From: Clostridia bacterium
GTDB lineage: Bacteria; Bacillota; Clostridia; CAKSNL01; HGM11501
DNA length: 64,000 bases
Assembly (NCBI GenBank): GCA_045545475.1
Contig: JAZQAZ010000010.1
Coordinates: forward strand, 32,001 to 96,000
Reading direction: 5' to 3'
Both the position numbers and the translations under genes were made by a program. This document shows, in pieces, positions 14,782 to 36,048 of this stretch (the first letter of the stretch is position 1; each line of letters starts with the position of its first letter). The notes under the pieces were generated by a model. That model ran no database searches, was not told where the DNA came from, and saw only the letters and a program-made list of their open reading frames with translations.

Positions 14782-14917
14782 TTTACAAAATGTGTCATCG
14801 TATGAAATGTTAGGACATTATTTTAACTTTTAATGCTTCATGACAGTTGAATGAAGGCGATGCCGGCATAAAAACTGTTGTTTGGCGGAAAATGAAAACT
14901 TGAAAGGATGTGATTGT

Positions 14918-16225: not shown

Positions 16226-16243
16226 ATTTAGGAGGAAAAAAAC

Positions 16244-17020: not shown

Positions 17021-17038
17021 TAAGTAGGGGAGTGCCTA

Positions 17039-18436
17039 ATGGAAATGTATAAAGCTTTTGCATCCAGTACAATTGGCGCATACCATATCAAAAAAAATAT
17101 ATGTTGCCAGGATGCCGTTGGGAAGTATGAAGACGAGAAAATGAACATCGTCGCTGTGGCTGACGGGCATGGCTCTCCTCAATATTTCCGCTCCGACAGA
17201 GGGGCAAGATTTGCTGTTGAGGCTGCTATTGACTGTGTTAAAAATTTCGTCAATAGTTTTGAAGCTGATTGCGAAAACTCAGAAGAGTCAATATTTGTCC
17301 ATAAGAAAAACCGTGACGTGGTAATGGCTGACCTGCAGAAAAGTATTTTAGTTGCATGGCACCTCAAGGTTGAACAGGATTTTAAGGCTGAACCTTTTTG
17401 CGAAGAAGATATAGAAAAATTTGGAGAAAGGTATGTAACCAGGTTAAAAAAGGGAAAGATTGAGTGGGCATACGGTGCAACGATTATCGTTGCGGTTGTT
17501 ACGGCTGAGTTTTGGCTTGCACTTCAGATTGGCGATGGTAAATGTGTTATCGTTGACGATGAAAAAAATGTGAGCATACCGATTCCGGAAGATCCCAACT
17601 GCGAAGATAATATCACAACTTCGATTTGTCAGGATGAGGCAAGGGACAGTTTCAGATACTATTTGGACAAAAAAATTCCTGTTGCCGTATTCCTGGGAAG
17701 TGACGGCGTTGAGAAGTCTTACAGAGATGACCCCGATCTTCTGATAAAGTTTTACAGAAGTGTTGTTCCTGCATTTAGAGACAACTTTGACGAGGGAGCA
17801 AAAGTGGTTGAAGACTATCTGCCAGTCATCACCCAAAAAGGTTATGGTGATGACACGTCGATAGCGGGAATTATTCACACCGAGAAGATAAAAGCTTGTG
17901 CTGAAGTGTTCTCCGAAATGAGAGCAGAAGAAAAGCATGAAGAGTCCATGAAGGATTTCGACGAGAAATTGCAAAAAAAGAAGACTCAATTTGAAAACAA
18001 TTCTGCTGCAATCGAAGAACTCAATGCAAAGATTTCAGCTTTGGAACAGTTGCATGCAACCCTTAGCGTTGATTTTGAAAGAAAGAATAAAGAAATCGAT
18101 GAGTTAAAGGAAAAAATTACTTCTTTGGAAAAAGAGAAAGAAGACTTCTCAAAACTGATGGAAGAAAAAAAGTGTTTTGCTGAAGAAATCAAGAGAGAAG
18201 TACAAAAGATAAAAACCGACATGGAAGCGGAGATGGGGAAATATAAAGAAGAGCAACTCAAAAAAGAAAAGAAAAACGAAGAAGGTTCAGATGATGTTGC
18301 TCCCGCAGAAGAGCCGGTTGAAACTGAAGATCAAGAGAAAAAAAGTTTCATTAAAAGTATTTCTGAATTTTTATGCAAAACCGGTGCTAAAATTGGCGAA
18401 GAAGCAGAAAAACGCGAAAATACACCTAAAGCATAA
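17039..18436 (+). CDS. PP2C-family phosphatase (TerY-P type) with long C-terminal coiled coil
   Basis: CQD, VADGHGS, QIGDG, GSDGV, DDTS motifs; E/K-rich heptads after ~aa 290. Confidence 0.88.
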   Translation: MEMYKAFASSTIGAYHIKKNICCQDAVGKYEDEKMNIVAVADGHGSPQYFRSDRGARFAVEAAIDCVKNFVNSFEADCENSEESIFVHKKNRDVVMADLQKSILVAWHLKVEQDFKAEPFCEEDIEKFGERYVTRLKKGKIEWAYGATIIVAVVTAEFWLALQIGDGKCVIVDDEKNVSIPIPEDPNCEDNITTSICQDEARDSFRYYLDKKIPVAVFLGSDGVEKSYRDDPDLLIKFYRSVVPAFRDNFDEGAKVVEDYLPVITQKGYGDDTSIAGIIHTEKIKACAEVFSEMRAEEKHEESMKDFDEKLQKKKTQFENNSAAIEELNAKISALEQLHATLSVDFERKNKEIDELKEKITSLEKEKEDFSKLMEEKKCFAEEIKREVQKIKTDMEAEMGKYKEEQLKKEKKNEEGSDDVAPAEEPVETEDQEKKSFIKSISEFLCKTGAKIGEEAEKRENTPKA

Positions 18437-18454
18437 ATCAAATTTATTATGATT

Positions 18455-18483
18455 ATAACGGGGGTGTTCCACACCCCCGTTAT
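18455..18483 (+). other. intergenic 13-bp stem-loop (terminator or RNA processing/stabilising hairpin)
   Basis: ATAACGGGGGTGT-TCC-ACACCCCCGTTAT; no clear T tract, next RBS follows at once. Confidence 0.6.
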
Positions 18484-18503
18484 TAATTGGGAGAGGGAAC
18501 TTT

Positions 18504-19511
18504 ATGCTTGAAGAATATGTGAAATTCTATTATATGGTACTAAACGATAAGGAAAAAGAAATTTACATGACATTTTATAATGCTTTTAAGAAACGGGAAA
18601 AAAGTATTAAAATAAATGCAAATCCTAAAGTGTTTACAATAGATGATATCATCAAAATTATGAAGTATGTTTATAATGATACCCCTGCGTTTTATTACCT
18701 GGATTTATATTGTTGTGAATACTATATATTACCGGATGGTTATATTTATAAGCAAGAATATTTATATACCGAAGAGCAGATCGCAAAGTTTGATGCTATG
18801 CTGGAAAGCGTACTGATAACGTTCAAAAATAACTATATAAAAAAAGGTATGAGCGATTATGACAAAGAACTTGTGATACATGATTATCTTGTTCGGACAA
18901 TAAAATACGATAAAAAAGAAGCGGACGAAGATAGAGTAATTGCTGACGAGGCATACAATGTGTTGGGTGCTTTGATTAAAAGAGAGGCTGTGTGTTGGGG
19001 AATTGCATGTGCATTTAAATTGCTGTGCGATTATTGTAAAGTGAAATGTTTTGTGGCAATTGGAAAGTCTGTTCCCAGTAACGGAGACTCAGGACACGCC
19101 TGGAATATAGTTAGAATAGAAGATAAAGAGTACCATGTTGATGTAACATGGGACCTTAAAGATAAAAAGGATATTTCGTTTTGCTATGATTATTTTAATT
19201 TAGACGATTTTTTGATAAAGTTTGACCATACATGGGACAGCAAACTTTATCCGAAGTGTTGCAGTATAGAACATAACTATTACTATAGACACAAACTATT
19301 TGTAAAAGAACTGTCTGATATTAAGGATTTTGTCAAAGAAAAATTAAAACAGAAAGAAACATATATAGCTTTTAAGTTTGCCGGTGATATGCCATCTAGT
19401 GAAAAAATAGACCGTGAAATCACAAAAGGTTTTTTAATGGCACTTGCATTCAAATCATATGCTTGTCTGATTTCGGAAAAAACGCACAATATATATATTG
19501 AGATACGGTGA
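18504..19511 (+). CDS. transglutaminase-like (Cys-His-Asp) domain protein
   Basis: IHDYL, AVCWGIA (Cys), GHAWN (His), HVDVTWD (Asp). Confidence 0.88.
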   Translation: MLEEYVKFYYMVLNDKEKEIYMTFYNAFKKREKSIKINANPKVFTIDDIIKIMKYVYNDTPAFYYLDLYCCEYYILPDGYIYKQEYLYTEEQIAKFDAMLESVLITFKNNYIKKGMSDYDKELVIHDYLVRTIKYDKKEADEDRVIADEAYNVLGALIKREAVCWGIACAFKLLCDYCKVKCFVAIGKSVPSNGDSGHAWNIVRIEDKEYHVDVTWDLKDKKDISFCYDYFNLDDFLIKFDHTWDSKLYPKCCSIEHNYYYRHKLFVKELSDIKDFVKEKLKQKETYIAFKFAGDMPSSEKIDREITKGFLMALAFKSYACLISEKTHNIYIEIR

Positions 19512-19534
19512 TAAGCACATAAGGAGATTTAGGT

Positions 19535-22500
19535 ATGAGAATAGAGGACAGATTAATCGGACTTGCTACGGAGTTTAAAAATCAGCATGATAAATTTTTA
19601 AGCTTGGGGATGCAGGCGAAAAGTGTAGAAGATAAATATGATGCTCTTTCGAAAGAAATCAAAATGAAATATGAGCAGAAAAAACGAGCTAAAGAACAGC
19701 TTAAGGAAACCATATATAAGTACTACAGAATCGCCAAAGAAAATACAAGTAATGAGATAAGGGCAAATGATGTGGCTTTAATCCCTGATATAGCGAAAAT
19801 CAATAATCTTGTTAACGAAATTGATATTACAAAAGATGACGATTTGAAAGCAAGAGAAGTTGTCAGTCTGGTAAGTAAATATATATCGTATGTTAACAGA
19901 GAAATTTCGATGCTTGCCGGTGAAGAAAAAGCAGAACAAAGAAAAAATGATGAACTTAAAGCGACCGCCATGAATCGGATGTATGCTGAAAGGCAAAAGT
20001 TGTTGGATGGCTGTAAAAAATATTTAAGCAGCGATAATGTTTTAACCTTAGTGCAATTGCTTGGTCTTATTGAAAAGGAATACGAAATTGGGGCGAATTA
20101 TTTCGCGAATTGGAAACCTGCGACAAAAAAAGTAGATACAATGCTGTACGGATACCGAAAGTATCATGTGGATTGTCCCGCATTTTTGCTTGATGATATG
20201 AGCCGCATATTCGGAAAGCATTTTGATAAGAGCAGAAGTTTGATTGATTTCCCTTGCGGATATGATATGGGTAAAACTAATGTTTTTGATATTGAATATA
20301 CTGACAAAACAGCAGGAGAAGTTGCTGATGGTATAAAATCGTGGATTCTTAATTTGCTGAAATATTATAAGCCGAGCGAATTGAGAGTTACATTAATTGA
20401 TCAAATTCATTATAGTCCCGGCATACTCGGTAAACTTTCTGCACTGATTACTGCAAAGAATAGCCTTATATCCAAGGTTCCGTATGACGAAAATGACTTG
20501 CGTTTGGAAATTGCCAAACTGGCAAATTACTACAGAGACGTTGAAAATCTCATAGGTTATTCCACGGTACGTGAATATAATACAAAGAAAGAAAACGTTA
20601 AAAAAATTCCGGAGCGTTTATTTATTATAAACAGAAATGATCAGGTGAGCACAGGATATGAAAAAGCGGAATTGATGTATATTCTTAACAATGCCGAAAA
20701 GTTTGGAATAACGGTTATTATTATGACTCGCAAAAGAGATATTGAACAAAAAACCAGGAACAGCATTAATTTGCCGAATACTAAATTTATTAAAACTGAT
20801 GCCAACGGAAATCTGTATATATTCGATAATGGCAATTGGATAGCGTTTAGTATTAATAAATTGAGTTGTGACATTCCTGCGGATTTTATTCAAAAGATAT
20901 TGAAAGAAACCACCCCTGTTGAGATTGGAACGAAGTATCCTAAGCGATTTCAGATAACTACGCCGAAAAAATCCATAGGAAAGCACAAAGATATTACAAT
21001 TCCCTTTGCTGTCGACAATAATGATAAGGCTGTGTATTGCAACTTTGATAATGAAAACTTTGCGGCATTTATGATGGGGTCATCTCGCTCGGGTAAAAGT
21101 ACATTGCTTCATGTAATGATTTCGCACCTGGTTATGAATTATCATCCCGATGAATTGGAGCTGTGGTTGGTTGACCTTAAAATGAATGAATTTAGTCTGT
21201 ATGCAAATGTATGCCCTCCGCATCTCAAATATCTTTTGCTTGAAAAGTCACCTGATCTTGTGTATGACCTGCTAGATAAACTTACAGAAGAACTTGAAAA
21301 ACGCAAAATAGTATTTTCAAGAAATGATTGGAAAAAAATTACTGATGTTCCGATTAATGTGTATATGCCGGTGATATTCGTCATTATTGACGAATTTGCA
21401 CAGATGTCCCAGATAATAAAAAACGACAACGGAAGAGGATATGCCGGAGTTCTTGAAAATCTCCTAAGACAAGGCGGCGGTTACGGATTTAAATTTATAT
21501 TTGCCGATCAGACATATACAACCGGTGTGGAAGGATTAACCGATCCTGCAAGGGAACAGATTCAACTTCGTTTTGCATTATATAACAATAACAGAAGCGA
21601 AATTAGACACACATTATATCTTTCGGACAATCAGATAACAACGCAGGTTGATGAATGGATAAGCACAATGCCTGTTTATCATACGCTGTTTAAGTGGAGA
21701 GACGAAAAACAAAAAATACATGTGGACCTGTTAAGGAATATGTATATTGAATCCGACGCAAAAGGGTCGAATAAATATATCAGCGAAGTTATAAACACGG
21801 TGAATTCTAAAATTAAAGCGGTTCCTTACGGTACTGTAACCACAGACAATACATATATATATCGAATGCCCGTATGTATAAATGGAAGCCACCCCAGGAC
21901 TATTCAAAGCTTGTCTCAAGCTTATGCGGAATATGAAAGTCGTCTTAAAGGGAATGGATACTTCCCCGAAGATACATTGATTTATCAGGGTGTTCCGTGT
22001 AGCTTTAATTTAGTTAAACCATTCTTGCTGAAAAACACATCTTCAGAAAATATATTTATAATAAAAGATCGAGCCGGTAAACTCGGATATCAGATGAGCG
22101 TGTTGCTTTCAATATTGAAAAGTTTTATGCGTAATTCAGGAGAAATTGAGGTCTGGGCCCACTACAGATCAGGTTTGTATGCTGAATATGGCTCGCTTTT
22201 GTCAAAAAAGTGTACGGTTATTACAGACCTATTGGGAATTTGCAGAAGAGCAGAAGCAATCAAAAATGATATTTTATCCGGTAAAAAGAGCAACAAAATG
22301 GTCGTAGTGTTAGGGTATGAATACATTTGCGACGAGTTGGAAAACTTAAGCTTACTTCAATCCTATGCAAATAAGAATACCAATCAATCCGTTGTTGATT
22401 CGGATGATGATTTTCCGAAAACAGCCGGGGAGTTAAAAAAATTAGTTGACAATACTCCCGACAAGAATGAAAAAGCAAGAATTATTGCTAAATTTAATCA

Positions 22501-22897
22501 ATATGTCAATAATTACAATAATAAACAGGGTGAAAACATAAACAATAGTCCTAAAGTACCTAGTACTTCACTATCAGACATCAAGGATACAATTAAATTA
22601 CTATTACGCATTGCACCGCAATTTGGAGTTCATTTTACATTTTGCTTCGAGGATACAAGCGGATTTATTAAGTTAAGGATGCCTGAAAACGACATTATAC
22701 ATAAAATATATATGGCAATAGCTCCGGTGGAAGCAAGGGCAATAGGGATGAAGAATGCAGGAACGCTGAGAGAAGGAACAAGCTTGTATTTTAATGGTGC
22801 GGAAGAAGTAACTTTCAGGCCTCATATACACTATGAAGTTCCTTATCCTAAGTGGAAGATAAGCAGTACAGGAGAAGTCGTGGAGGACTTTAAATAA
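19535..22897 (+). CDS. FtsK/SpoIIIE (EssC/EccC-like) ATPase, no transmembrane segment seen
   Basis: Walker A GSSRSGKS, LWLVDLK, Walker B IFVIIDEFAQ, GFKFIFADQ; N-terminal coiled coil; degenerate ATPase-like regions on both sides. Confidence 0.85.
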   Translation: MRIEDRLIGLATEFKNQHDKFLSLGMQAKSVEDKYDALSKEIKMKYEQKKRAKEQLKETIYKYYRIAKENTSNEIRANDVALIPDIAKINNLVNEIDITKDDDLKAREVVSLVSKYISYVNREISMLAGEEKAEQRKNDELKATAMNRMYAERQKLLDGCKKYLSSDNVLTLVQLLGLIEKEYEIGANYFANWKPATKKVDTMLYGYRKYHVDCPAFLLDDMSRIFGKHFDKSRSLIDFPCGYDMGKTNVFDIEYTDKTAGEVADGIKSWILNLLKYYKPSELRVTLIDQIHYSPGILGKLSALITAKNSLISKVPYDENDLRLEIAKLANYYRDVENLIGYSTVREYNTKKENVKKIPERLFIINRNDQVSTGYEKAELMYILNNAEKFGITVIIMTRKRDIEQKTRNSINLPNTKFIKTDANGNLYIFDNGNWIAFSINKLSCDIPADFIQKILKETTPVEIGTKYPKRFQITTPKKSIGKHKDITIPFAVDNNDKAVYCNFDNENFAAFMMGSSRSGKSTLLHVMISHLVMNYHPDELELWLVDLKMNEFSLYANVCPPHLKYLLLEKSPDLVYDLLDKLTEELEKRKIVFSRNDWKKITDVPINVYMPVIFVIIDEFAQMSQIIKNDNGRGYAGVLENLLRQGGGYGFKFIFADQTYTTGVEGLTDPAREQIQLRFALYNNNRSEIRHTLYLSDNQITTQVDEWISTMPVYHTLFKWRDEKQKIHVDLLRNMYIESDAKGSNKYISEVINTVNSKIKAVPYGTVTTDNTYIYRMPVCINGSHPRTIQSLSQAYAEYESRLKGNGYFPEDTLIYQGVPCSFNLVKPFLLKNTSSENIFIIKDRAGKLGYQMSVLLSILKSFMRNSGEIEVWAHYRSGLYAEYGSLLSKKCTVITDLLGICRRAEAIKNDILSGKKSNKMVVVLGYEYICDELENLSLLQSYANKNTNQSVVDSDDDFPKTAGELKKLVDNTPDKNEKARIIAKFNQYVNNYNNKQGENINNSPKVPSTSLSDIKDTIKLLLRIAPQFGVHFTFCFEDTSGFIKLRMPENDIIHKIYMAIAPVEARAIGMKNAGTLREGTSLYFNGAEEVTFRPHIHYEVPYPKWKISSTGEVVEDFK

Positions 22898-22922
22898 AAA
22901 TTAAAAGAAAGAAGGTAAAAAA

Positions 22923-23180
22923 ATGGCTGTAGAACTTGAATCCTTAATAGCAGTGTCAAGAGCGTTGGAGGAATACGCTGAAAATGTCACTCAAGATATA
23001 GCTAAAATGGCAGATGCAGCAGTTGATTGCCATGATAACATGGAGAAGGACGAATATAGTAAGAAGGCAATAAATAACCTTAAAGGGTGCCTTGAAGAAT
23101 TAAAAAAGGCTACTGTAAAGGCTATTGAAGTGAAAGAAGATATTGATGAATTGATTAAGAAAATACGTAAAGGTATTTAA
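22923..23180 (+). CDS. small helical hairpin protein, WXG100-like (85 aa)
   Basis: Two amphipathic helices with a central turn (NMEKDEYS), directly after the FtsK-like ATPase; no literal WXG. Confidence 0.6.
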   Translation: MAVELESLIAVSRALEEYAENVTQDIAKMADAAVDCHDNMEKDEYSKKAINNLKGCLEELKKATVKAIEVKEDIDELIKKIRKGI

Positions 23181-23201
23181 AAGTTGAAAGAGGCCATAGC
23201 A

Positions 23202-24221
23202 ATGAGAGTTGAAATAAGCGAAAATGGAGCACGGGAATTAGAGGCTTTAGCGTATTATGTTAAAAAGCTGTTTTCCGATATTGAGAACGAATGCATGGTT
23301 CTGAACAATGTTGTTAAAAATACCGAGGGACTCGGCGTTTATGAAGAAAAAATAAAAGATCTGGTTTTAAATGTTGAGCACATAATAAATCTAAATAAAA
23401 ACTCCGTTGAGACTATAGCATCGGCAATTAATGATATAGCTTACGACATACGTGTATTGCTTAATGCACTTGGAGGAGCTGGTGGTATCGGAGTAATGAA
23501 TGTTAAAAATATGGGAATGTCTACAAAGGCCGGACAAGGAGCTGTGCAAACAGCAGCTAACATTATTCCCGATGTTGCTCCGCTTGCATCAACTGCACAG
23601 ACAATCAGAGTGGTTAAAAATGAAGACGGTACAATTTCCAAAGTGTTCGATCATCCGGAAAAATTGGCTATGGCATTAGGGTGCACACAGGGGAATAACA
23701 ACTATGGTATGCTGGGAACTTGCGGACTAGCCAGTACTGCACAGTGGCTGAAAATTATGGGCAGTCGATACACTGAAAATGATGTTGTGGGCTATGCATA
23801 CAACTCAAATCTATGCAGCTCAACCGGTGGCACAAGCATATTTGATATTGTGAAAATTTGGGATGCGTTCGGAATAAGTGCTCAGTATATGTTTAAACCA
23901 AAGCTTTCGGAACTGGCTGATTACATAGAAGAAGGCCGTGCTGTTGTGGTAGGCGTAAACGCCGGAAAGCTATGGGGGATGGATAATCCTGAAGGCTATG
24001 ATTGCTTTTTACATTACGGCGATGGCGGAGCTAATCATGCTATTTCTATAACCAGTGTAATGCGCGATCCGGTTACAGATGCTATACAGGGATTTTATAT
24101 CAGTGATACAGGACGTGGATATGACAGAGACAGGTGTCGTTTTATTTCCTTGTCGGATATGGAATATGCCTTGTATGTCAACAGAGGTTCTGCGTGTATT
24201 TCTAATAAACCCATGTGGTGA
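23202..24221 (+). CDS. WXG100-like N-terminal domain fused to a papain/C39-like cysteine peptidase; putative effector
   Basis: N-terminal LGVYEEKI hairpin, Gly-rich linker GGAGGIG, then QG...GTCGLAS (Gln/Cys), NHAISI (His), YISDTG (Asp). Confidence 0.7.
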   Translation: MRVEISENGARELEALAYYVKKLFSDIENECMVLNNVVKNTEGLGVYEEKIKDLVLNVEHIINLNKNSVETIASAINDIAYDIRVLLNALGGAGGIGVMNVKNMGMSTKAGQGAVQTAANIIPDVAPLASTAQTIRVVKNEDGTISKVFDHPEKLAMALGCTQGNNNYGMLGTCGLASTAQWLKIMGSRYTENDVVGYAYNSNLCSSTGGTSIFDIVKIWDAFGISAQYMFKPKLSELADYIEEGRAVVVGVNAGKLWGMDNPEGYDCFLHYGDGGANHAISITSVMRDPVTDAIQGFYISDTGRGYDRDRCRFISLSDMEYALYVNRGSACISNKPMW

Positions 24222-24234
24222 TGGAGGGGAAGGC

Positions 24235-24708
24235 ATGAACTTAGAAAAATTAATGGAATATATTAATTCGAATTGCAGTGTATATAACATATGCGATAAT
24301 GAATGTTTGTCACTTCCGATGCCTTTGGGTATAAATGGGAAAATGGTTGTATTTACTTATACCGTTACCATGGGAATGCCTGCAATAATCACGGTTACTA
24401 AAAAAATAATATTGGATGCAGAGTCTTACGAAACCGATTTTGAAATCATCCAAAACCCTGATTTATCAGAAAATGAGAGTTATTTAGAAACCTACAAAGA
24501 TTTACCTGTTACAACATCAGCGGATAAAGTGTATGAGGAAAATATGAGATTGTTGCAAAGAATGCTGGAAAGTAATTTTTCGTGCGACCGAACTGCGGAA
24601 TTTGCAAAATATTTTGCGAATGCAATGCCGCAGTCTTTACAATCGGTATATTATTCTGTTATACCTGAGTTTTTTATCGAGATAAGAGGTATTTTAAGTA
24701 AAGGTTAA
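24235..24708 (+). CDS. hypothetical protein, candidate immunity partner of the peptidase
   Basis: RBS GGAGGGG before ATG 24235; immediately downstream of the putative effector; role inferred from position only. Confidence 0.6.
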   Translation: MNLEKLMEYINSNCSVYNICDNECLSLPMPLGINGKMVVFTYTVTMGMPAIITVTKKIILDAESYETDFEIIQNPDLSENESYLETYKDLPVTTSADKVYEENMRLLQRMLESNFSCDRTAEFAKYFANAMPQSLQSVYYSVIPEFFIEIRGILSKG

Positions 24709-24721
24709 GAAGGTGATAGCT

Positions 24722-25081
24722 ATGGCTAGATATAATATATCAAAGGAAAGCTTGACTTTATTGGACGAGCTGGCTGATAATCTTACAGAGAGCGTAAGTA
24801 ATATCAATATTCAGACATACGAATTATTAAATTTGGTAACAAAACTTGGCGATACACTTGGTGTTTATCAAAAAGGCGTTTTGAAACTTATAAAAGACGT
24901 TATTGCGATTAACGATTCAGCACAGAGTGAAACCAAATATTTGATAGGAACCACCATTCCTGCAATACAGGATAATATAAGATTTCTGTTGAGTCATGAA
25001 CTTGGATCCGGAGAAGAAAGTGATGACGACGAAGACCCGGCAATAAAAAAATTGGTATTAAAACTTCCGAGAAGGATGTAA
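24722..25081 (+). CDS. WXG100-like protein (LGVY turn) with acidic/basic C-terminal tail
   Basis: Aligns with the N-terminus of 23202 and with 25110; ends SGEESDDDEDPAIKKLVLKLPRRM. Confidence 0.65.
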   Translation: MARYNISKESLTLLDELADNLTESVSNINIQTYELLNLVTKLGDTLGVYQKGVLKLIKDVIAINDSAQSETKYLIGTTIPAIQDNIRFLLSHELGSGEESDDDEDPAIKKLVLKLPRRM

Positions 25082-25109
25082 TAGTTAATTTAAAACAGGA
25101 GGAAAAGAG

Positions 25110-25388
25110 ATGACTAAAGTAGATATTAGTGCAAAGGGAATTGAACATTTAGAAAAGCTTAAAGAGGATTTAATAAAAATAAGTAACGAAATTGAAGAAG
25201 AAGGTCAGACACTCAAATCTCTTGTTGTAAGAGAAGGCGACTCTTTAGGAGTTTATGAAGAAAAAATACTTGAGTTAATTGAAGAAATTAAAAAAATTGA
25301 AGAGGTTGGAAGAGAATCCCTTCCTGAATTAAATAAAAAACTGGAAGAAAAAATTGAGGAAATAAAAGATTTGATGAAATATCTTTAA
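25110..25388 (+). CDS. WXG100-like protein (LGVY turn), 92 aa
   Basis: RBS AGGAGG; helix-GDSLGVYEEKI-helix. Confidence 0.7.
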   Translation: MTKVDISAKGIEHLEKLKEDLIKISNEIEEEGQTLKSLVVREGDSLGVYEEKILELIEEIKKIEEVGRESLPELNKKLEEKIEEIKDLMKYL

Positions 25389-25418
25389 GCTTATTCTTTG
25401 AAGGGAAGAGGAAACAGA

Positions 25419-26207
25419 GTGGAACCAATAACTAACAGTGTGGTAAAAGAAAGAATTCGTTTGAGAATTGAAGATGAAATCGGAAAAGAAATATATGAAA
25501 TAAATTGTAAGGCAAATGAAGAGATTTATAAACTGAAGCCTAAAAATCTACCTGATCCGATAGGATGGGGATGTCTCGGATTGATTTTAGCTTGCGGGAC
25601 ATTCGGCATAGGCTTTTTAGTTTGTCTGTTAGGATACCATATACATAAAGCTGCGGTTGAAGGGGATAACGAAGCAATCGAAATTAAAAAGAAAAAAATC
25701 AGAGCTGATGCCGACGCGAAGATTGCTAAGCTTAAACAAACTGCTGACCTGAAAACACGTAAGGAAATTCTTGCATATGATACGGATGTTCAACGACATG
25801 TAAAAAGCGCATCGACTAAGACTAAGGAATTAGGGCCTATGGTTGCACATGTTGCAATGATGTTTGAAAGAATGATTTCTCACGCTGATAAAGGAACAAA
25901 TAAGCGATTCATAGAAGCTTACTTTACATTTGAAGTAACTAAGACTATGATTATATATCATTACCAAAGCACATATACAAACAGCAATGACAATTATGAT
26001 TTTGATAAAAATCGTTATAAATTGCTTACTGAAGATGCAGAATGTGAAGCTCTTGCTCAGGTGCTGACCGTTTTATCTACTAAGAAGGTTATAGCGAAAT
26101 ACCCGGCAAATTCGGTTAATATTAATGTGACGCATAATGATGCGAAAGTAACTATACATTTCAAGGCAGCAAATCCTAATTTTATAAACTCCATAAAAAT
26201 TATTTAA
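25419..26207 (+). CDS. hypothetical membrane protein with coiled coil
   Basis: GTG start after GAGG; hydrophobic stretch WGCLGLILACGTFGIGFLVCLLGY. Confidence 0.7.
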   Translation: MEPITNSVVKERIRLRIEDEIGKEIYEINCKANEEIYKLKPKNLPDPIGWGCLGLILACGTFGIGFLVCLLGYHIHKAAVEGDNEAIEIKKKKIRADADAKIAKLKQTADLKTRKEILAYDTDVQRHVKSASTKTKELGPMVAHVAMMFERMISHADKGTNKRFIEAYFTFEVTKTMIIYHYQSTYTNSNDNYDFDKNRYKLLTEDAECEALAQVLTVLSTKKVIAKYPANSVNINVTHNDAKVTIHFKAANPNFINSIKII

Positions 26208-26248
26208 GGTAGAGTTTGTTGCGAATATATTTTGAAAAGGTATAATAA

Positions 26249-26288
26249 AAAATAGAGTCTTTCGACATGGCTAGAAAGACTCTATTTT
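26249..26288 (+). terminator. 15-bp perfect hairpin between the FtsK module and the radical SAM gene
   Basis: AAAATAGAGTCTTTC-N10-GAAAGACTCTATTTT. Confidence 0.7.
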
Positions 26289-26350
26289 GGATACCGAGTG
26301 TGTTGGCAATCGGTGTCTGCGTTTACATTTTGGGGAGAGATGGTGTGTTT

Positions 26351-27349
26351 ATGAAGTACAAAATTAAAAAATGTGTTTGGGAATTAACTACTGCATGCAC
26401 AATGAACTGTAAACATTGCGGTTCTAAGGCCGGAAATAAAAGGGACAATGAACTTAAATGGGATGAGGCTAAGAAAGTAGCAGAACAGCTTGTTGAATTA
26501 GGATGCGAAAAGGTTGCCTTAATTGGTGGGGAAGTTACATTGGTTCCATATTGGGCAGAGTTAGCACACTTTTTTTCGGTCAATAGTGTAGTGTGTGATA
26601 TTATAACGAACGGATACCGAAAATCCGAAAAAGATTATGAGCAGATTGCGAAATCTAAGGTACGGGCGGTGGCAATTTCTATTGACGGTTTTAGAGATGT
26701 ACATAATAAAATCAGAGGAAAAGATGATGCCTTTGAAGAATTGGAAAAATTCGTGGATAGATTGAATGAAATGCATATAAAGATAACGGCTATTACAACT
26801 ATAACAAAGGAATGTATCGCCGATTTACCTGAAATTTATAATTGGCTGAAGAGTAAAAAGGTAATTGCGTGGCAATGGCAACAAGTATCTCCGATGGGCA
26901 ATGCCAAGGATAATTTATTGAATTGCCTTTCGAAGGATGACTTACGTGAAGTGATAGATATTTATGAGAAACTGAGCGGGGCGGAAGTATTGCTGTCAAT
27001 GGCAGATAATATAGGTTATTATTATGCATATAAGAATAGATTGTTTCAACAATTTAAAGGTTGTGCGGCGGGATTATGCGTTATAGGTATAGATAGTGTT
27101 GGAAATGTAAAGGGTTGCGAGTCACTGTATGATGATAAGTATATAGAAGGAAATTTGCGAGAAGAAACATTAGCCGACATATGGAACGATGACACAAGAT
27201 TTTCTTATAATCGCAATTTCAGTATAGAATTGATGAGTGGCAATTGTAAAGAGTGTGATGTGAAACACATATGTGCCGGCGGATGCAGAAGCTTTAATGC
27301 ATTTAATGGCGAACTATATAATCATGTGAATTGTATAAAAAATATTTAA
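26351..27349 (+). CDS. radical SAM/SPASM enzyme, splicease-like peptide/protein maturase
   Basis: CVWELTTACTMNCKHCGSKAG (CxxxCxxC), IGGE, SIDG, SPASM cysteines GCAAG...VKGC...CKECDVKHICAGGCRS. Confidence 0.9.
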   Translation: MKYKIKKCVWELTTACTMNCKHCGSKAGNKRDNELKWDEAKKVAEQLVELGCEKVALIGGEVTLVPYWAELAHFFSVNSVVCDIITNGYRKSEKDYEQIAKSKVRAVAISIDGFRDVHNKIRGKDDAFEELEKFVDRLNEMHIKITAITTITKECIADLPEIYNWLKSKKVIAWQWQQVSPMGNAKDNLLNCLSKDDLREVIDIYEKLSGAEVLLSMADNIGYYYAYKNRLFQQFKGCAAGLCVIGIDSVGNVKGCESLYDDKYIEGNLREETLADIWNDDTRFSYNRNFSIELMSGNCKECDVKHICAGGCRSFNAFNGELYNHVNCIKNI

Positions 27350-27371
27350 AAATAGCGAATGGGGTGTAAAT

Positions 27372-27965
27372 ATGGAACTTAATAAATTGTTGGTCATAGA
27401 AAAACAATATATAGATGCATATTTAAATGCAACTATATTATCTAAAAATTATCTTGAAAAACTTTTAGCTGAGGTAAAAAACTTATCAACAACCATTACC
27501 GAAACAGTGATATATAAAAATATGTTTAACGTGATATCAACAGCTTATGATCTTGTATTGGATATGGAAGAATTATGTAAGAAAGCAGTTTTTATAGAGG
27601 GTGAGATGGCATATCCTGAAAACTATAAGTTTGAAGAGATATCAAATATAGAAAATAAAGTAAATACAGCAGAAAGATATGAATATTTAATGCATGAGCT
27701 ATATAACGCTATGAGAAAAATAGGAACAGAAAGAACTATTTTTGCAGCGATTAATATAGCTGAGGAAAAGGGAAATATTTACATGATAGAGTTAAAAGTT
27801 GCGAAAAATCAAATTGACAGTATGCAATGTAGAGAGTTATACGGTCCTCCAGATTTTGACGATGACTTTGAAAAAAATAGAGATGACATTACGCAGCAGG
27901 CTACAATATACGGTCCTCCGGATTTTGACGATGACTTTGACACTAGCTTTGGTTCTTGGAAATAA
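27372..27965 (+). CDS. helical protein with duplicated C-terminal (L/I)YGPPDFDDDF motif; candidate rSAM substrate
   Basis: Directly after the rSAM gene; repeat visible in protein and DNA. Confidence 0.75.
   Translation: MELNKLLVIEKQYIDAYLNATILSKNYLEKLLAEVKNLSTTITETVIYKNMFNVISTAYDLVLDMEELCKKAVFIEGEMAYPENYKFEEISNIENKVNTAERYEYLMHELYNAMRKIGTERTIFAAINIAEEKGNIYMIELKVAKNQIDSMQCRELYGPPDFDDDFEKNRDDITQQATIYGPPDFDDDFDTSFGSWK
27838..27940 (+). repeat. 34-bp direct repeat x2 (69-bp period) encoding YGPPDFDDDF
   Basis: TATACGGTCCTCC(A/G)GATTTTGACGATGACTTTGA at 27838-27871 and 27907-27940. Confidence 0.9.
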
Positions 27966-27986
27966 TCTTAAATACAGGAGTGTGTT

Positions 27987-28481
27987 ATGGAAAGGTTGAT
28001 ATTAAAAAACCGCAAGATTTTAGAAATGGTTTTCGTATTACATAAACAGTTGGGTATTATTTTTGATGAGTGGATTGTTGAACTTGAGCATCTCAAAGTA
28101 TTCAGTGGGATGGAAGTTCCGGAAGTTGATGCTGTGCATTTGTTGATGAAATGTCTGGAAGAGATTTTAGAAGAGTGTAATTATGGTAATATCGAAAGAT
28201 ACACCTTAGATTATCCCGAAAATTTCTCGGAAGAGTTTAACGAGACAATACTTCAAATTTATAAAACATACGAAAGAATTCTTCAAAAAATATGTAATCT
28301 CAAAGAAGGCATAACATCACTTATATTTAATAAGAAGATTGTATTAAATATGCCGGACTGTAGCTCTGATATGAGATTATTGTCAATGATAGCTGATGAA
28401 ATTAATATATATTTGAAGTTATTGACAGAAATACAGATTAAATGCAGAGAAATTAATACTATTTACGGAACAGCTTTATGA
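27987..28481 (+). CDS. paralog of the 27372 protein, ending in IYGTAL; candidate rSAM substrate
   Basis: Shares YPEN(Y/F) and CRE...YG motifs with 27372; RBS AGGAG. Confidence 0.7.
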   Translation: MERLILKNRKILEMVFVLHKQLGIIFDEWIVELEHLKVFSGMEVPEVDAVHLLMKCLEEILEECNYGNIERYTLDYPENFSEEFNETILQIYKTYERILQKICNLKEGITSLIFNKKIVLNMPDCSSDMRLLSMIADEINIYLKLLTEIQIKCREINTIYGTAL

Positions 28482-28556
28482 TAAGAGGTATCTTGAAACT
28501 TCAAGGTGTAATATGCTCAAGAAAAGTATCTATGAGAAAACATGGAGAAGCTTATA

Positions 28557-29564
28557 ATGGATAAAGAAATATTGGAGATTTTAAGAAAAACATACGAAGT
28601 GAACGGAGATGCACTTTTTGCGGATAATGTGATTTTAAAGGCTTATTTAACGGATTTACTGGTTGGTTATCCCGCTGAAAAAAAGAGACTTATATTGGCA
28701 GTAAATGAAAATCTTGTTAGAAAGTTAATCGAAAACAAAGCAGATTCTGCAAAATGTGCATTGTATTCAATGATTCTTGTGGATACATATGCATTGCCGG
28801 AAGAAGTAGCTGAAGAAATTATAGATGTATTCTATTATGCTATTAATGGATATCGTGTATCCAAAAGAAAAGTTAACTCCGATGGTCGGACACGAAATGT
28901 GCAGCAAGAAGAAATGAATAAGGAATCAAAGCGTATTTTGGAAGAAAGAAGGAAAGAGGAGTTAATTGCAAGATTGGAAATGGCTGTTGCGGAAAGGAAA
29001 AAAAAGGCCACTGAAGAAAAGCTAAAAGCTACTGAAGAAAGACAGAAAGCCACCGAAGAAAGGCGAAAAGCTACTGAAGAAAGACAGAAGGCCACCGAAG
29101 AAAGGCGAAAAGCTACTGAAGAAAGGCAGAAAGCTATCGAAGAAAGGCAGCTTGCACGAAAGTGGGTTAACGAACAGAAGCTTAAAGAGGAACAAGCGAG
29201 GATTACGGAAGAAAACAGGCTTCGCGAAAAAGAGAAGAAAAGTAAAGCACTGCAGGAGTCTGTTACTTCCTCACTGATGACATGTTTCTTGGTTGGTTGT
29301 ATAATGTTTTCTAACTATATGGTGCCGGCAGAAAGTGTGGCTGAAGCTTGGCTTAAGTGTTTAGGAGCGTTAGGTATTCCTGTGATTCGCATATTTGTTG
29401 AGATGCTTAGTGAAGAAGATGAAATGAAGAAAAAATATATCGGGCGTATTAATTTGGCCATAATTATTGTGGTATTGGGCTGTTTTTATTGCATTGAAGA
29501 ATTATACAACAATAATATCGCAATAAGAACTATAGTAGATTTTCTGAGAGTTTTTATGAGTTAA
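28557..29564 (+). CDS. shared N-terminal domain + heptad-repeat coiled coil + C-terminal TM helices
   Basis: N-terminal ~100 aa aligns with the next two genes; KATEER(Q/R) repeats; about three hydrophobic helices. Confidence 0.8.
   Translation: MDKEILEILRKTYEVNGDALFADNVILKAYLTDLLVGYPAEKKRLILAVNENLVRKLIENKADSAKCALYSMILVDTYALPEEVAEEIIDVFYYAINGYRVSKRKVNSDGRTRNVQQEEMNKESKRILEERRKEELIARLEMAVAERKKKATEEKLKATEERQKATEERRKATEERQKATEERRKATEERQKAIEERQLARKWVNEQKLKEEQARITEENRLREKEKKSKALQESVTSSLMTCFLVGCIMFSNYMVPAESVAEAWLKCLGALGIPVIRIFVEMLSEEDEMKKKYIGRINLAIIIVVLGCFYCIEELYNNNIAIRTIVDFLRVFMS
29004..29150 (+). repeat. 21-bp tandem repeat x7 (KATEERQ/KATEERR) with 42-bp higher-order period
   Basis: Alternating GCTACTGAAGAAAGACAG / GCCACCGAAGAAAGGCGA units. 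Confidence 0.85.
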
Positions 29565-29681
29565 CGGCGGATTTATGAATAAAGAGAATGAAATGTAAAC
29601 AGAAACTAAAGACAGCTTAAAAAGAATGGATTTCGATTACGGTGCTGATTTTTTAATGAGATTATTTACAGAGAGGTTTTT

Positions 29682-30665
29682 ATGAAAAGGGAAGTTTTGG
29701 CCATTTTGCGTAAAACATATTTGGATTACGGAAAGGAAGTTTTTTGCGATAGGAATAGATTAAATGCATTCTTGGGGGACTTATTATATGAATATCCTCA
29801 CGAGCGTAAAAAAATCTCTTTAGCAATAAACGAGAATATGGCATATAAAATTATCACCGAAGTTACTGCTGAAAATCCATTCAGGATAAATGTATTTATA
29901 GAGGAATTAGTAGAGTGCTACGAACTGCCCAGGAATGTAGCGACAGATATTATAAATACTTTATGCTATTCTATAACCGGGAAAAAATATATGTCAAAGA
30001 CTATTGAAAAAATATTAAAAGAATTGTATTATTCTCCGGATGAGGCTGTTGAAAAAGAATATGCGGATGAAATATATCTGGCGGCACAGGAAGGAAACGC
30101 TGATGCACAGTATAGGGTAGGCAATTGGTTTGAAACGGGAAAAATTGTTGAAAAGAATATGTTTATGGCAAAAGAATGGTATACAAAGGCGGCGGAAAAT
30201 AAACATTGCTGGGCAATACATAATCTCGGAAGATTTTGCGAGATTGAAGAAAACGAGACAGATGCATTAAAATACTATCGTACTTCGCTTAACTTTGGCG
30301 AAATTCAAAGTGCGTATAATATTGCGTTGTATTATAAAAATAAGGCAAAAAATAAAGAACCACATGAAAAAGTAGAATGCTATACGTTAGCTATTAAATA
30401 TTTAAAAAAAGGTACGGATATTGTTATTCCTAAATATAACTCATCGTATAAGGTGTTTTTGAAAATAAAGTATGAATGTGCAAAACAGGCAGCGTTTTTA
30501 TGCAAAGACATATTTGATATTATAATGAAAAGAGAAGAGCTTAAAGATTCATTTGATATGAAGGCTAATGTAGAAACTTCCAAATACTTTATGAACATTC
30601 AAAAAGACACAGCGAATGTTATGAGGGATATGTATAATTTAACAATAGATAAAATGTCTTTTTGA
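29682..30665 (+). CDS. shared N-terminal domain + Sel1-like repeats
   Basis: AAQEGNADAQYRVG, AKEWYTKAAE, AIHNLG, SAYNIALYY. Confidence 0.8.
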   Translation: MKREVLAILRKTYLDYGKEVFCDRNRLNAFLGDLLYEYPHERKKISLAINENMAYKIITEVTAENPFRINVFIEELVECYELPRNVATDIINTLCYSITGKKYMSKTIEKILKELYYSPDEAVEKEYADEIYLAAQEGNADAQYRVGNWFETGKIVEKNMFMAKEWYTKAAENKHCWAIHNLGRFCEIEENETDALKYYRTSLNFGEIQSAYNIALYYKNKAKNKEPHEKVECYTLAIKYLKKGTDIVIPKYNSSYKVFLKIKYECAKQAAFLCKDIFDIIMKREELKDSFDMKANVETSKYFMNIQKDTANVMRDMYNLTIDKMSF

Positions 30666-30686
30666 TTTTTTACATAGGGGGAAAAT

Positions 30687-31889
30687 ATGCGAAACGAAGT
30701 ATTAAATATATTTAGGAAAATGTATTTAGACAATGGTGCGGATTTGTTTTTAAATAACAGTAAGCTAGTATCATACTTAAAAGATATGCTTGTTGAATTT
30801 CCAAAAGAAAGAGCTCGTTTATGCTTTGTAGCCAGAGAAAATATTGTATCGAAAATCTATAGAGAAGTATCATCTGAAGACTTATCTAGATGCGGGATAA
30901 TGATTAGCCTTTTGGTGGATACATATTCCATGTCGGATATTATTGCGACAGATATTGTAAATGCAATTTGCTATGCTTTGTTCGGTCGCAATTATTCTGG
31001 CGATAAGCATGAAAACAAAACTGTTACATGCGAAGCCGGAACAGACTTTCTGTTGCAAACAAAATTAATTAAATATACCGGAGCAGATGTTGAAGAAATA
31101 ATAGTTCCTGATGGGGTTGAGGTTATAGGCCAGGATGCATTTTTGGCTATAGAAAATGTAAAGAGAATAGTCCTGCCTAATACAGTTAAAGTAATAGAAG
31201 CAAATGCATTTTATTGGCTTATGAATCTTGAGGAAATTAACTTGCCAGATTCTGTTATAAGTATCGGAGCATGGGCATTTTGCGGTTGCGAATCGCTTAA
31301 GGAACTTACTTTGCCTGATAAAATTGAAACCATTGAGGAATTTGCATTTAGCAGAAGCGGAATCGAAAGGATTGAATTGCCGAAAGGTCTGAAAAAGATT
31401 AAGCACGGCTCTTTTATGAACTGTAAAAGGCTAAAGGAAATCTATATTCCGGAAAAAGTGGAATTGATAGAAGATATGGTATTTACTGCATCTGGAATAG
31501 AAAAGTTCGACATTTCTCCTGATAATCCGAAATTTGAGTTTTGGAATAATGGTGGTATTCTGGTGGAAAACATGGGTGTTAAAGAGAAAATGACATATGG
31601 AATCGATGACCGTATAATAAAGACAAAAGTGATTGAACGAAAATTAATCTGGTTTAGAGATGCTTTTTTATATAATAATATTACAGTTCCTTCGGAAATC
31701 GCTGTTATAGCAAATAGAGCTTTTCCGCATAGTGCCAAAGGAAAGCGTATAATTATTCCTAATTCGGTTACAAAAATTGAAGATGAGGCGTTGCCGCCTC
31801 ATAGTATACTGATATGTGAGCGAGGATCGGCCGCTGAAGGGTATGCGATAAAGAATAACCTGAAATATATATATCGTAACAACATATAA
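30687..31889 (+). CDS. shared N-terminal domain + BspA-type leucine-rich repeats
   Basis: Repeated LP.sV..Ig..AF..C..L units. Confidence 0.85.
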   Translation: MRNEVLNIFRKMYLDNGADLFLNNSKLVSYLKDMLVEFPKERARLCFVARENIVSKIYREVSSEDLSRCGIMISLLVDTYSMSDIIATDIVNAICYALFGRNYSGDKHENKTVTCEAGTDFLLQTKLIKYTGADVEEIIVPDGVEVIGQDAFLAIENVKRIVLPNTVKVIEANAFYWLMNLEEINLPDSVISIGAWAFCGCESLKELTLPDKIETIEEFAFSRSGIERIELPKGLKKIKHGSFMNCKRLKEIYIPEKVELIEDMVFTASGIEKFDISPDNPKFEFWNNGGILVENMGVKEKMTYGIDDRIIKTKVIERKLIWFRDAFLYNNITVPSEIAVIANRAFPHSAKGKRIIIPNSVTKIEDEALPPHSILICERGSAAEGYAIKNNLKYIYRNNI

Positions 31890-31944
31890 TGAGCAATAAT
31901 ATTTAGTGCAGAAGGAGATTTGCAATTCCAAAAGGAGAATTATA

Positions 31945-32688
31945 ATGCCATCGATTAAAGAATATATCAGAAGGGAAAGAGAAGAAACAAAAATATTGCT
32001 TCGGTGCATTCCTGCAACGGTTGTGACTTTGTTTGTAGTAAGCGTAATATGTATGAATCTTCTGGCGAATAAAACGCTTTTCCAAAATAATTGGCTTGCC
32101 CTTGACGGAGGGATACTTATTTCCTGGCTGTCATTTATGTGTATGGATGTTGTGACAAAGCACTTCGGGCCTAAAGCATCCAACAAAATATCGGTTTTAG
32201 CTGCGGGGATAAACCTACTTACATGTCTGATATTTTTCGTTGCAAGTATAATTCCTTCAAACGCCAATGATTACAGTGCTTTCAACGGGATTTTTGGCGG
32301 AACCTGGTTTATACTTTTAGGAAGTACCGTGGCTTTTTTATCTTCTGCCTGCATCAATAATATGCTGAACTGGACAATCGGTAAGGCTTTCAAGAAAAAT
32401 CCTGATGGGAAAATTGCCTTTGCAGTCCAAAGCTATATTTCTACATTTATCGGACAGTTTTGCGACAATTTTATATTTTCCGTTATAGTTTTCGTTTTCT
32501 TTGCTCCGATTTTCTGGGACGGATTTTGCTGGACTTATCTTCAGTGTACAACCTGTGCACTGACAGGTGCAATTGCGGAGCTTATTATGGAAATTGCATT
32601 TTCGCCCATCGGATATAAAATGGTTAGACGCTGGAAGGAAAATTCTGTAGGTAAAGAATATCTGGATTATATCACCGAAGGAAGGTAG
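31945..32688 (+). CDS. VUT/YhhQ-family transporter (queuosine precursor uptake)
   Basis: Multi-TM; NLLANK, DVVTKHFG, GSTVAF, STFIGQFCDNFIF match the family pattern; RBS AAGGAG before ATG 31945. Confidence 0.75.
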   Translation: MPSIKEYIRREREETKILLRCIPATVVTLFVVSVICMNLLANKTLFQNNWLALDGGILISWLSFMCMDVVTKHFGPKASNKISVLAAGINLLTCLIFFVASIIPSNANDYSAFNGIFGGTWFILLGSTVAFLSSACINNMLNWTIGKAFKKNPDGKIAFAVQSYISTFIGQFCDNFIFSVIVFVFFAPIFWDGFCWTYLQCTTCALTGAIAELIMEIAFSPIGYKMVRRWKENSVGKEYLDYITEGR

Positions 32689-35777: not shown

Positions 35778-36048
35778 AATAGTCGGTAGGTGAGGAAATA
35801 TTTTCTGTATCCTTAAAGATGAAAAAATATTTTGAAGAGCTTAAGCCTATGCTTTATATAGGAATACAAATGAGAATGCAGAGTGCAATGTATCAGATTA
35901 TAATTCTATCCTTTGCTCTTATATTCCATATATGGCACAGAATATCGGAGTAGGGAATATTGAAAGAGCGAGAAAAGCAATGCTTTCGGTAACGATGATA
36001 ACAAAGAACTTCAAGAGAAAAGACTTTATTAAATTAAGGGGTTTTATC

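Follow-up and report, generated by a model that had tools for sequence, protein, structure and literature searches.

A radical SAM/SPASM enzyme encoded beside two tyrosine-motif proteins in a Clostridia bacterium: a candidate splicease-like system for full-size proteins

Introduction

A three-gene unit was analyzed in a 64,000-nucleotide (nt) stretch of DNA, hereafter the window, from a Clostridia bacterium (NCBI GenBank assembly GCA_045545475.1, contig JAZQAZ010000010.1, positions 32,001 to 96,000 of the forward strand). The unit encodes a radical S-adenosylmethionine (rSAM) enzyme with a SPASM domain, followed by proteins of 197 and 164 amino acids (aa) that carry tyrosine-centered motifs. 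A first-pass annotation, made from the sequence alone, had read it as a splicease-like enzyme with two paralogous full-size protein substrates, lying in a conflict locus. In the parts of the literature consulted, characterized spliceases excise a tyramine equivalent at X-Y-G and leave an alpha-keto-beta-amide, with a mass change of -135.06 Da (PMC11626197; PMC5995677). The analysis reported here makes the pairing of the enzyme with an adjacent protein substrate highly probable, while the fuller statement, namely an enzyme-substrate system in which the enzyme acts on the motif tyrosine by splicing, is evenly poised between holding and failing.

The three-gene unit

The unit and its motifs are laid out as follows.

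26351..27349 (+): radical SAM/SPASM enzyme, 332 aa (Pfam, NCBIfam, alignment A1)
27372..27965 (+): substrate candidate 1, 197 aa, with YPENY and two Phi-Y-G-P-P-D-F sites
27612..27626 (+): YPENY, residues 81-85 of the 197-aa protein, the second element of the clade, YPxN[F/Y]
27837..27857 (+): site 1 of the 197-aa protein, L-Y157-G-P-P-D-F
27838..27871 (+): direct repeat copy 1, 34 nt, encoding YGPPDFDDDF
27906..27926 (+): site 2 of the 197-aa protein, I-Y180-G-P-P-D-F
27907..27940 (+): direct repeat copy 2, 34 nt
27987..28481 (+): substrate candidate 2, 164 aa, a divergent paralogue, with C-terminal CREINTI-Y160-G-T-A-L
28212..28226 (+): YPENF, residues 76-80 of the 164-aa protein
28461..28478 (+): C-terminal I-Y-G-T-A-L of the 164-aa protein, an X-Y-G outside the Y-x-x-P pattern of the clade

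The enzyme gene with its CVWELT start lies where the first-pass annotation had placed it, and its product passes the Pfam cut-offs for Radical_SAM (81.9 bits) and SPASM (PF13186; 30.9 bits against a cut-off of 21.5). The CX3CX2C motif reads ACTMNCKHCGS, and its cysteines C16, C20 and C23 are invariant in all 18 sequences of alignment A1, as are seven SPASM cysteines (C238, C256, C299, C302, C308, C312 and C328). The longest open reading frame (ORF) spans 26267-27349 and offers two candidate starts, ATG 26267 and ATG 26351. Because a Shine-Dalgarno-like GGGGAGAG stands upstream of ATG 26351 and homologues in A1 begin at the equivalent MYxLKSCVWELT, this second start, which reads MKYKIKKCVWELTTACTMNCKHCGSKAG, is the likelier one. 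The start at 26267, 84 nt earlier, would add 28 hydrophobic N-terminal residues resembling a transmembrane segment (MARKTLFWIPSVLAIGVCVYILGRDGVF), and it is the one chosen by the gene caller of the protein collection (360 aa).

All three genes lie on the + strand, with gaps of 22 nt between the enzyme gene and the 197-aa ORF and 21 nt between the two smaller ORFs. No free ORF of at least 20 aa was found between or beside them, a PlpY-like partner with a recognition element (RRE) for peptides made on the ribosome and modified after translation (RiPPs) included. Among the neighbours, Pfam and NCBIfam returned no RRE, RiPP protease or exporter, which agrees with the first-pass statement that none is adjacent.

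The duplication noted earlier in the 197-aa gene is real at the DNA level, the two repeat copies being identical at 33 of 34 nt (97%). The protein contains CRELYGPPDFDDDF (MQCRELYGPPDFDDDF) with LYGPPDFDDDF, then QQATIYGPPDFDDDF with IYGPPDFDDDF, and ends in SFGSWK. The 164-aa protein has the C-terminus CREINTIYGTAL / KCREINTIYGTAL / IQIKCREINTIYGTAL and an additional internal N-Y-G at residues 65-67 that the first-pass annotation had left uncounted. Its ORF and its IYG end are as described earlier; the paralogy claimed for it is plausible but weak, with a BLASTP E value of 0.28 against the 197-aa protein and 25% identity in a MAFFT alignment. In that alignment the common motifs are collinear, comprising YPEN[Y/F] near residue 80, NIY[M/L], and QI..[Q/K]CRE[L/I] right before the tyrosine.

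Neither protein has a Pfam or NCBIfam family above cut-off, a Nif11 or NHLP leader, or a GDL motif. K-mer searches for relatives returned each protein alone. A full HMMER search against 1.84 billion representatives, which covered the 197-aa protein only, returned that protein and two repeat-protein artefacts (P0122 and P0123). The tyrosine motif itself is not a chance occurrence in this genome: among 1.86 million aa of stop-to-stop frames, [VLIMCA]Y[AG][GAPS]P[EDPQ] occurs in four frames, and the 197-aa ORF is the only one of these with two copies plus YPxN[FY].

Structure prediction from single sequences by AlphaFold2 gave low-confidence models, with a mean predicted local distance difference test score (pLDDT) of 43.3 for the 197-aa protein and a pLDDT of 57.5 for the 164-aa protein. 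The latter model is all-helical with four long helices, places YPENF in a loop and lets the last helix run into IYG. For the same protein the best ESM Atlas score was 0.84, with low recognition, to PA28-like helical clusters, and was taken as uninformative. A complex prediction for the enzyme (A1) with the 197-aa protein, run without controls, reached ipSAE values of 0.01 and 0.01 (mark, 0.32) and weighs neither way on binding.

Clade-wide conservation of the enzyme and its partner gene

The protein collection contains 1,277 matches to the enzyme at E <= 1e-10, the best non-self match having 55% identity, and 297 of 335 candidate stretches from GTDB species genomes encode relatives. Neither 11 genomes from its genus nor the 60 relatives searched yielded the enzyme. 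A metagenome scan with the single enzyme returned relatives at 21-37% identity only, and the sole phage match stands at 23% identity. The survey of gene neighbourhoods covered the best 80 homologous loci, of up to 17 kb each, with 40-54% identity to the window enzyme.

A strict pattern modelled on the sites of the window itself, [LIVMFCAT]Y[AG]?GPP, identified ORFs in 19 of the 80 loci, all of them 0-71 nt from the enzyme gene and none elsewhere. With the wider pattern, Y[AGS][GAPS]P or YGPP in an adjacent same-strand ORF, a motif ORF was found in 62 of 80 loci, a count that is partly post hoc since the pattern was widened after the loci had been inspected. Over their 11,841 aa these partners carry 192 sites, a density of 16.2 per 1000 aa. 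By comparison, the 1,034 ORFs of these loci that are not adjacent to the enzyme gene contain 20 sites over 268,071 aa (0.075 per 1000 aa), none of them with two or more, which amounts to a more than 200-fold enrichment in the adjacent genes. By the same pattern the 197-aa protein has two sites and the 164-aa protein none.

The logo of the 192 sites reads P-P-M-x-x-V-Y-A-G-P-E-[Y/M]-[F/M] (consensus P-x-M-x-x-V-Y-A-G-P-E). Position +2 after the tyrosine is Gly, Ala, Pro or Ser (117, 39, 21 and 15 sites, respectively), and position +4 is most often Glu, Pro or Asp (68, 29 and 24). The tyrosine is itself strongly constrained: within partners, Tyr fills the variable position of [VLIM]x[AG][GAPS]P in 181 of 191 cases, and Phe or Trp never does. 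The L/I-Y-G-P-P-D-F sites of the window depart from this consensus as a minority form, and so do the sites of loci L023 (three of the type V-Y-G-P-P-E) and L045; the partners of L017 and L032 carry V-Y-A-G-P-E. A second element, YPx[NRSQ][FY], is roughly 100-fold denser in partners (1.94 per 1000 aa) than in controls (0.019). In its YPxN[F/Y] form it is present in 23 of the 62 partners, and both window proteins carry it (YPENY and YPENF); the YPENY of the L057 partner is identical to that of the window. The motif lies downstream of the enzyme or is fused to it in the three loci that are closest (window, L002 and L003), and upstream in the others.

The pairing of enzyme and substrate is well supported because the adjacent gene carries the tyrosine motif across the clade, whereas the motif is rare in other ORFs; in this the earlier proposal of the downstream proteins as likely substrates held up. 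A rival explanation is that the adjacency in the window is a coincidence, with the enzyme serving a cofactor or another non-protein substrate, such as heme in the manner of NirJ or AhbD, and the two ORFs being unrelated orphans. The bit scores of the AhbD and NirJ models, given below, and the absence of homologues of the two ORFs in the searches would fit this explanation. It is nevertheless very improbable, given the clade-wide adjacency, the rarity of the motif genome-wide, the collinear alignment of both ORFs over common elements (YPEN, and QI..[QK]CRE before the tyrosine), their common strand and the tight gene spacing.

Some results of the survey count against the proposed system. By the wider-pattern rule, which was itself set after inspection, 18 of the 80 loci have no motif ORF, and the loci are non-independent because they come mostly from related Clostridia metagenome-assembled genomes. 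In four of the motif-negative loci (L009, L010, L013 and L020, from Campylobacterota and Bacteroidota including Prolixibacteraceae), the enzyme is preceded by a conserved 158-aa protein ending in VVLYMAQ(P/A)K, or in VVLYMAKPE in L013. Four more (L024, L053, L074 and L076) have motif-negative partners of about 100-170 aa. An N-terminal LYLxxWQKRM is common to the partners of L024, L053 and L074. As an observation on both sets, which come from outside Clostridia, their partners have a tyrosine in a hydrophobic context and no Pfam or NCBIfam match. L003 and the loci with GG-leader peptides, described below, are negative too.

Diversity of the partner proteins

The first-pass reading of the substrates as full-size proteins gains from the survey, in which many partners carry known domains. 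The motif region of the partners falls outside every Pfam and NCBIfam model, and the domains that flank it vary: double zinc ribbons are found in many, FHA in L022 and L045, and ACT in L014. The partner in L027 is a WXG100 protein (PF06013, 40.1 bits against 27.3; TIGR03930, 46.8 against 44.85) with a GGGAGG linker and a C-terminal MLYGAPQ, and it provides the only clear connection found from the enzyme clade to a family of type VII substrates. Its ORF (L027:1005-1415, +) lies directly upstream of the clade enzyme at 1508. Locus L070 encodes a tandem run of three helical proteins, each about 100 aa long, of which at least two end in AVYAPP. Because the flanking domains vary in this way, the clade appears to target full-size proteins as well as peptides.

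Peptide-like partners also occur. Peptides with GG leaders adjoin the enzyme in L004, L008, L062 and L069, those of L008 and L062 being Nif11/NHLP-like by eye. The cores in L004, L008 and L062 contain YP(x)N-type elements together with Y-[G/A] sites, and that in L069 contains T-Y-G only. Distant homologues of the enzyme (33-37% identity) follow multi-pass membrane proteins, of which four have C-terminal Y-G tails and the one in L088 carries Y-G within its N-terminal portion. In L003 (Blautia schinkii; L003:7983-9155, +), the enzyme ORF is 390 aa long and extends into a C-terminal tail of about 55 aa that ends in LLYAGPPLPR, an apparent natural fusion of enzyme and substrate. Separately, the Pfam family PF23498 ('MgtT') gave weak matches at C-V-Y-A/N-G-P-[D/E]-F-F in the partner proteins of L011 (residues 71-87, 27.0 bits) and L071 (residues 23-39, 17.9 bits), neither of which has a stretch that passes on its own. 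The MgtT-like site may mark a small-protein family built on the same tyrosine motif.

Family placement and probable chemistry

Across 18,950 NCBIfam models, the top match of the enzyme is TIGR04103 (nif11-class maturase 3, PlpX type), at 209.9 bits against a cut-off of 725 and with the match stopping at model position 326 of 412. It is followed by TIGR03913 (GDL-motif peptide-associated; 186.6 against 591.75), TIGR04133 (rSAM_w_lipo; 133 against 425) and the mycofactocin enzyme MftC (117.2 against 265), and then by AhbD (115 bits) and NirJ (112 bits). The two best models outscore MftC by about 70-90 bits and TIGR04133 does so by about 16. In addition, all 18 clade members of A1 match TIGR04103 (best E 3.7e-80) and TIGR03913 (best E 1.2e-75). 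The three families named in the first-pass annotation as candidate kin therefore rank first, and the kinship stands to that extent, but membership does not: by rank of hidden Markov models (HMMs) the enzyme is near the PlpX-type splicease family, yet it belongs to no curated family, because its TIGR04103 and TIGR03913 scores are far below the cut-offs. A sequence search of the PDB returned SkfB as the nearest entry (58 bits) and no splicease structure, and PADLOC gave a generic match to pVip (71 bits).

Tyramine excision at the three X-Y-G sites of the window is the leading guess for the chemistry. It is rated most likely because the nearest model is of the PlpX type, because the PlpA splice tag (GPIRPLYGLPI) has a Y-G-x-P spacing (PMC10533398, in the part consulted), and because binary spliceases work without an RRE partner, a precursor helix being proposed as the enzyme activator in the consulted part of PMC11414181. 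Since the clade consensus is V-Y-A-G-P and not X-Y-G, excision is put forward as an inference and not as a given.

Several features tell against splicing. The enzyme reaches the cut-off of none of the curated families scanned. Of the 192 sites, 171 have Ala and 19 have Gly at residue +1, so that the clade departs from the canonical Y-G. Residue -1 is Val in 160 of the 192 sites, and a Val before Tyr recalls the Val-Tyr pair of mycofactocin. Of the three splice sites proposed for the window, all are present (LYG, IYG and IYG), but the third, IYGTAL, has neither the Pro nor the acidic residue and does not fit the clade motif. Furthermore, all characterized spliceases met in the portions of the literature consulted act on X-Y-G.

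The Y-A consensus and the conserved Val at -1 thus keep a different tyrosine chemistry well in play. With the same pairing of enzyme and substrate, a C-C or C-O cross-link, beta-hydroxylation, epimerization or an MftC-related Val-Tyr rearrangement would yield an unspliced modified protein or a protein-derived cofactor. Enzymes of the rSAM/SPASM type that are close in sequence can differ in chemistry, the PlpX-type family models score less than one third of their cut-offs, and MftC is the fourth-best match. This alternative is a tenable but doubtful one, in view of the three top-ranking models and the lead of the best two over MftC, the X-Y-G form of all three window sites, and the pairing of distant homologues with Y-G-tailed proteins. 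Its MftC-type variant, decarboxylation, needs a C-terminal tyrosine, which no window site has.

Under the splicing reading, the substrates would be recognized via YPxN[F/Y] and at least one hydrophobic-Tyr-[Ala/Gly]-small-Pro-[Asp/Glu] site. The enzyme would reductively cleave S-adenosylmethionine at the CX3CX2C cluster and, using two auxiliary SPASM clusters, attack the motif tyrosine. Tyramine would then be excised as in spliceases, leaving an alpha-keto-beta-amino amide of the beta-Leu or beta-Ile type with a loss of 135.06 Da (C8H9NO) per site, and the product would be an otherwise full-size helical protein. From these comparisons we infer the tyrosine as the attacked residue, the splicing chemistry and any protease-inhibitor role; a tyrosine-directed modification of full-size proteins appears well supported by the conservation of the motif.

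The surrounding island

The GC content is 0.32-0.36 over about 18-32 kb (18001-32000), against about 0.40-0.44 in the flanks. Because of this low GC content, and because neither the enzyme nor the FtsK/SpoIIIE ATPase described below was found in the genus relatives searched (20 relatives in the case of the ATPase), the segment probably came in by horizontal transfer as an island, and no plasmid matched these 14 kb. Ahead of the enzyme gene lies one promoter-like feature.

26219..26246 (+): sigma-70-like promoter match TTGCGA-16-TATAAT ahead of the enzyme gene (weak evidence)

Such sites show no excess in the region (37 versus 31.5 +/- 6.2 in shuffles), and no terminator-like site was seen on the + strand between 26200 and 32098.

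Just before the ATPase gene, a Ser/Thr kinase, a VWA protein, a PP2C phosphatase and a transglutaminase-like protein are encoded in a row (14882-19511). PADLOC gave weak generic matches for the kinase (mad6, 50.9 bits) and for the ATPase (mad8, 35.8 bits). The ATPase itself (1120 aa, in 19535-25388) has weak EssC/EccC similarity, at 56.1 bits against a cut-off of 778.4. Next in order come an 85-aa helical protein, a 345-aa protein, a likely immunity ORF (24235-24708), and helical proteins of 122 and 92 aa. The 345-aa protein combines a helical N-terminus, a GGAGGIG linker and a C39-like C-terminus (20.6 bits, below cut-off; peptidase domain in 23184-24221), and an LGVY[E/Q] motif is common to the 345-, 122- and 92-aa proteins. 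The set at 19535-25388 resembles a WXG/LXG-like toxin cassette, and a 269-aa membrane protein follows the helical proteins.

These neighbours suggest another role for the two window proteins, as secretion substrates or adaptors of the FtsK-like ATPase, with a Y-x-x-x-D/E tail as the signal and the enzyme tuning it or acting elsewhere. Y-x-x-x-D/E is a mycobacterial type VII signal, and Y-G-P-P-D fits it. The EssC/EccC similarity of the ATPase, the small helical proteins of the island, its protein with a helical N-terminus and a C39-like peptidase domain, and the WXG100 partner of L027 with its C-terminal LYGAP are all consistent with such a role. However, this genome, 95% complete, gave no match for WXG100 or YukD and only 18.2 bits, below cut-off, for YukC/EssB, and the EssC model stays at 56 bits against 778. 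Moreover, when 16 island proteins were compared by tblastn with the 80 loci, the leucine-rich repeat (LRR) protein alone matched, so most clade members lie outside such islands, and many partners are zinc-ribbon, FHA or ACT proteins. A secretion role is accordingly improbable. As for the conflict locus proposed in the first-pass annotation, the island looks like an accessory conflict or secretion locus; a canonical type VII system it does not appear to be, with WXG100 and YukD not found and EssC far below cut-off.

Downstream of the unit, three proteins (28542-29564, 29682-30665 and 30687-31889) share an N-terminal domain of about 105 aa at 36% identity, with the pattern EvLxILRKTY..G..F.D...L.a.L.DLL..yP.E.k and no Pfam or NCBIfam match. 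Their C-termini consist of a KATEERQ/R-repeat coiled coil with transmembrane segments, Sel1 repeats, and a BspA-type LRR_5 region (146 bits), respectively, and together they suggest a polymorphic family sharing one adaptor domain. A possible defence-type gene a few kb outside the island encodes a 937-aa protein (35932-38745) with a TIR_2 domain (48.8 bits) and Sel1 and TPR repeats.

In the consulted parts of PMC11414181 and PMC11626197, the products of binary type II spliceases are ketoamides that inhibit Ser/Cys proteases. On a broader and rather unlikely scenario, the clade would install a backbone modification, probably an electrophilic alpha-ketoamide, at V-Y-A-G-P repeats of ordinary full-size proteins (WXG100, FHA, ACT, zinc-ribbon and helical). 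The two modified helical proteins of the window would then act covalently, through their warheads, as inhibitors or partners of the island's papain-fold enzymes (the C39-like peptidase and the transglutaminase-like protein), forming a post-translationally armed immunity or effector pair.

Significance and comparison with known systems

Reviews describe how Scott et al. (2022) searched the neighbours of rSAM/SPASM genes for YG-rich proteins, and they report 27 characterized and 939 predicted systems in 189 genera (PMC10849128; PMC10533398). The present clade may be listed among those predictions, although a screen by YG frequency would see few Y-G sites in Y-A-G-P partners. Full-text searches of the literature for the Y-A-G-P motif and for WXG100 proteins alongside radical SAM enzymes returned no description of this system, which the tables of Scott et al. 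may nonetheless list. If splicing is correct, the site rule would widen from Y-G to Y-A, ribosomal beta-amino acids and ketoamide warheads would occur within normal signalling- and secretion-domain proteins, and new tags and enzymes would become available for protein engineering. If the chemistry differs, the clade would represent a new tyrosine modification.

Firmicute type VII secretion (EssC, WXG100, EssB and YukD) differs from the locus in that its core genes were not found above cut-off in this genome. MftC/MftA resembles it as an rSAM/SPASM enzyme acting on a Tyr after a branched hydrophobic residue and as the fourth-best match, and differs in a score (117.2) below the cut-off of 265, in the internal, repeated window sites without a C-terminal Tyr, and in the lack of adjacent mft genes. 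The families TIGR03913 and TIGR04133 are the second- and third-best HMM matches, but both fall below their cut-offs, and the window shows neither a GDL motif in the two proteins nor an adjacent lipoprotein partner. The binary type II systems of Rheinheimera (RhaX, RasX and RcsX), likened here by description, share the arrangement of an enzyme and a precursor with no Y protein. Their leader-core peptides sit in RiPP clusters with peptidase-exporters, in contrast to the window, where no protease or exporter is present and the proteins are larger.

The closest likeness is to the type I systems PlpX/PlpA and PcpX/PcpA of cyanobacteria (TIGR04103). They share the rSAM/SPASM architecture and the best HMM match, a Tyr site after a hydrophobic residue (L/I-Y-G in the window) and the possibility of several sites per precursor; the PlpA tag, in the part of the source consulted, has the Y-G-x-P spacing seen in the window (PMC10533398). 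The window differs from PlpX/PlpA in a score of 209.9 against the cut-off of 725, in a match that ends at model position 326 of 412, and in having neither a PlpY-like RRE gene nor a Nif11/NHLP leader on its substrates. Those substrates are helical orphan proteins of 164-197 aa encoded downstream, and the clade consensus is Y-A-G-P. Altogether, characterized spliceases act mainly on leader-core peptides with X-Y-G, and the system described here, for which Pfam and NCBIfam hold no model, appears from these comparisons to be a variant that opens onto a large uncurated family. This much larger set comprises full-size partners with repeated V-Y-A-G-P-E sites, mostly from gut and rumen Clostridia.

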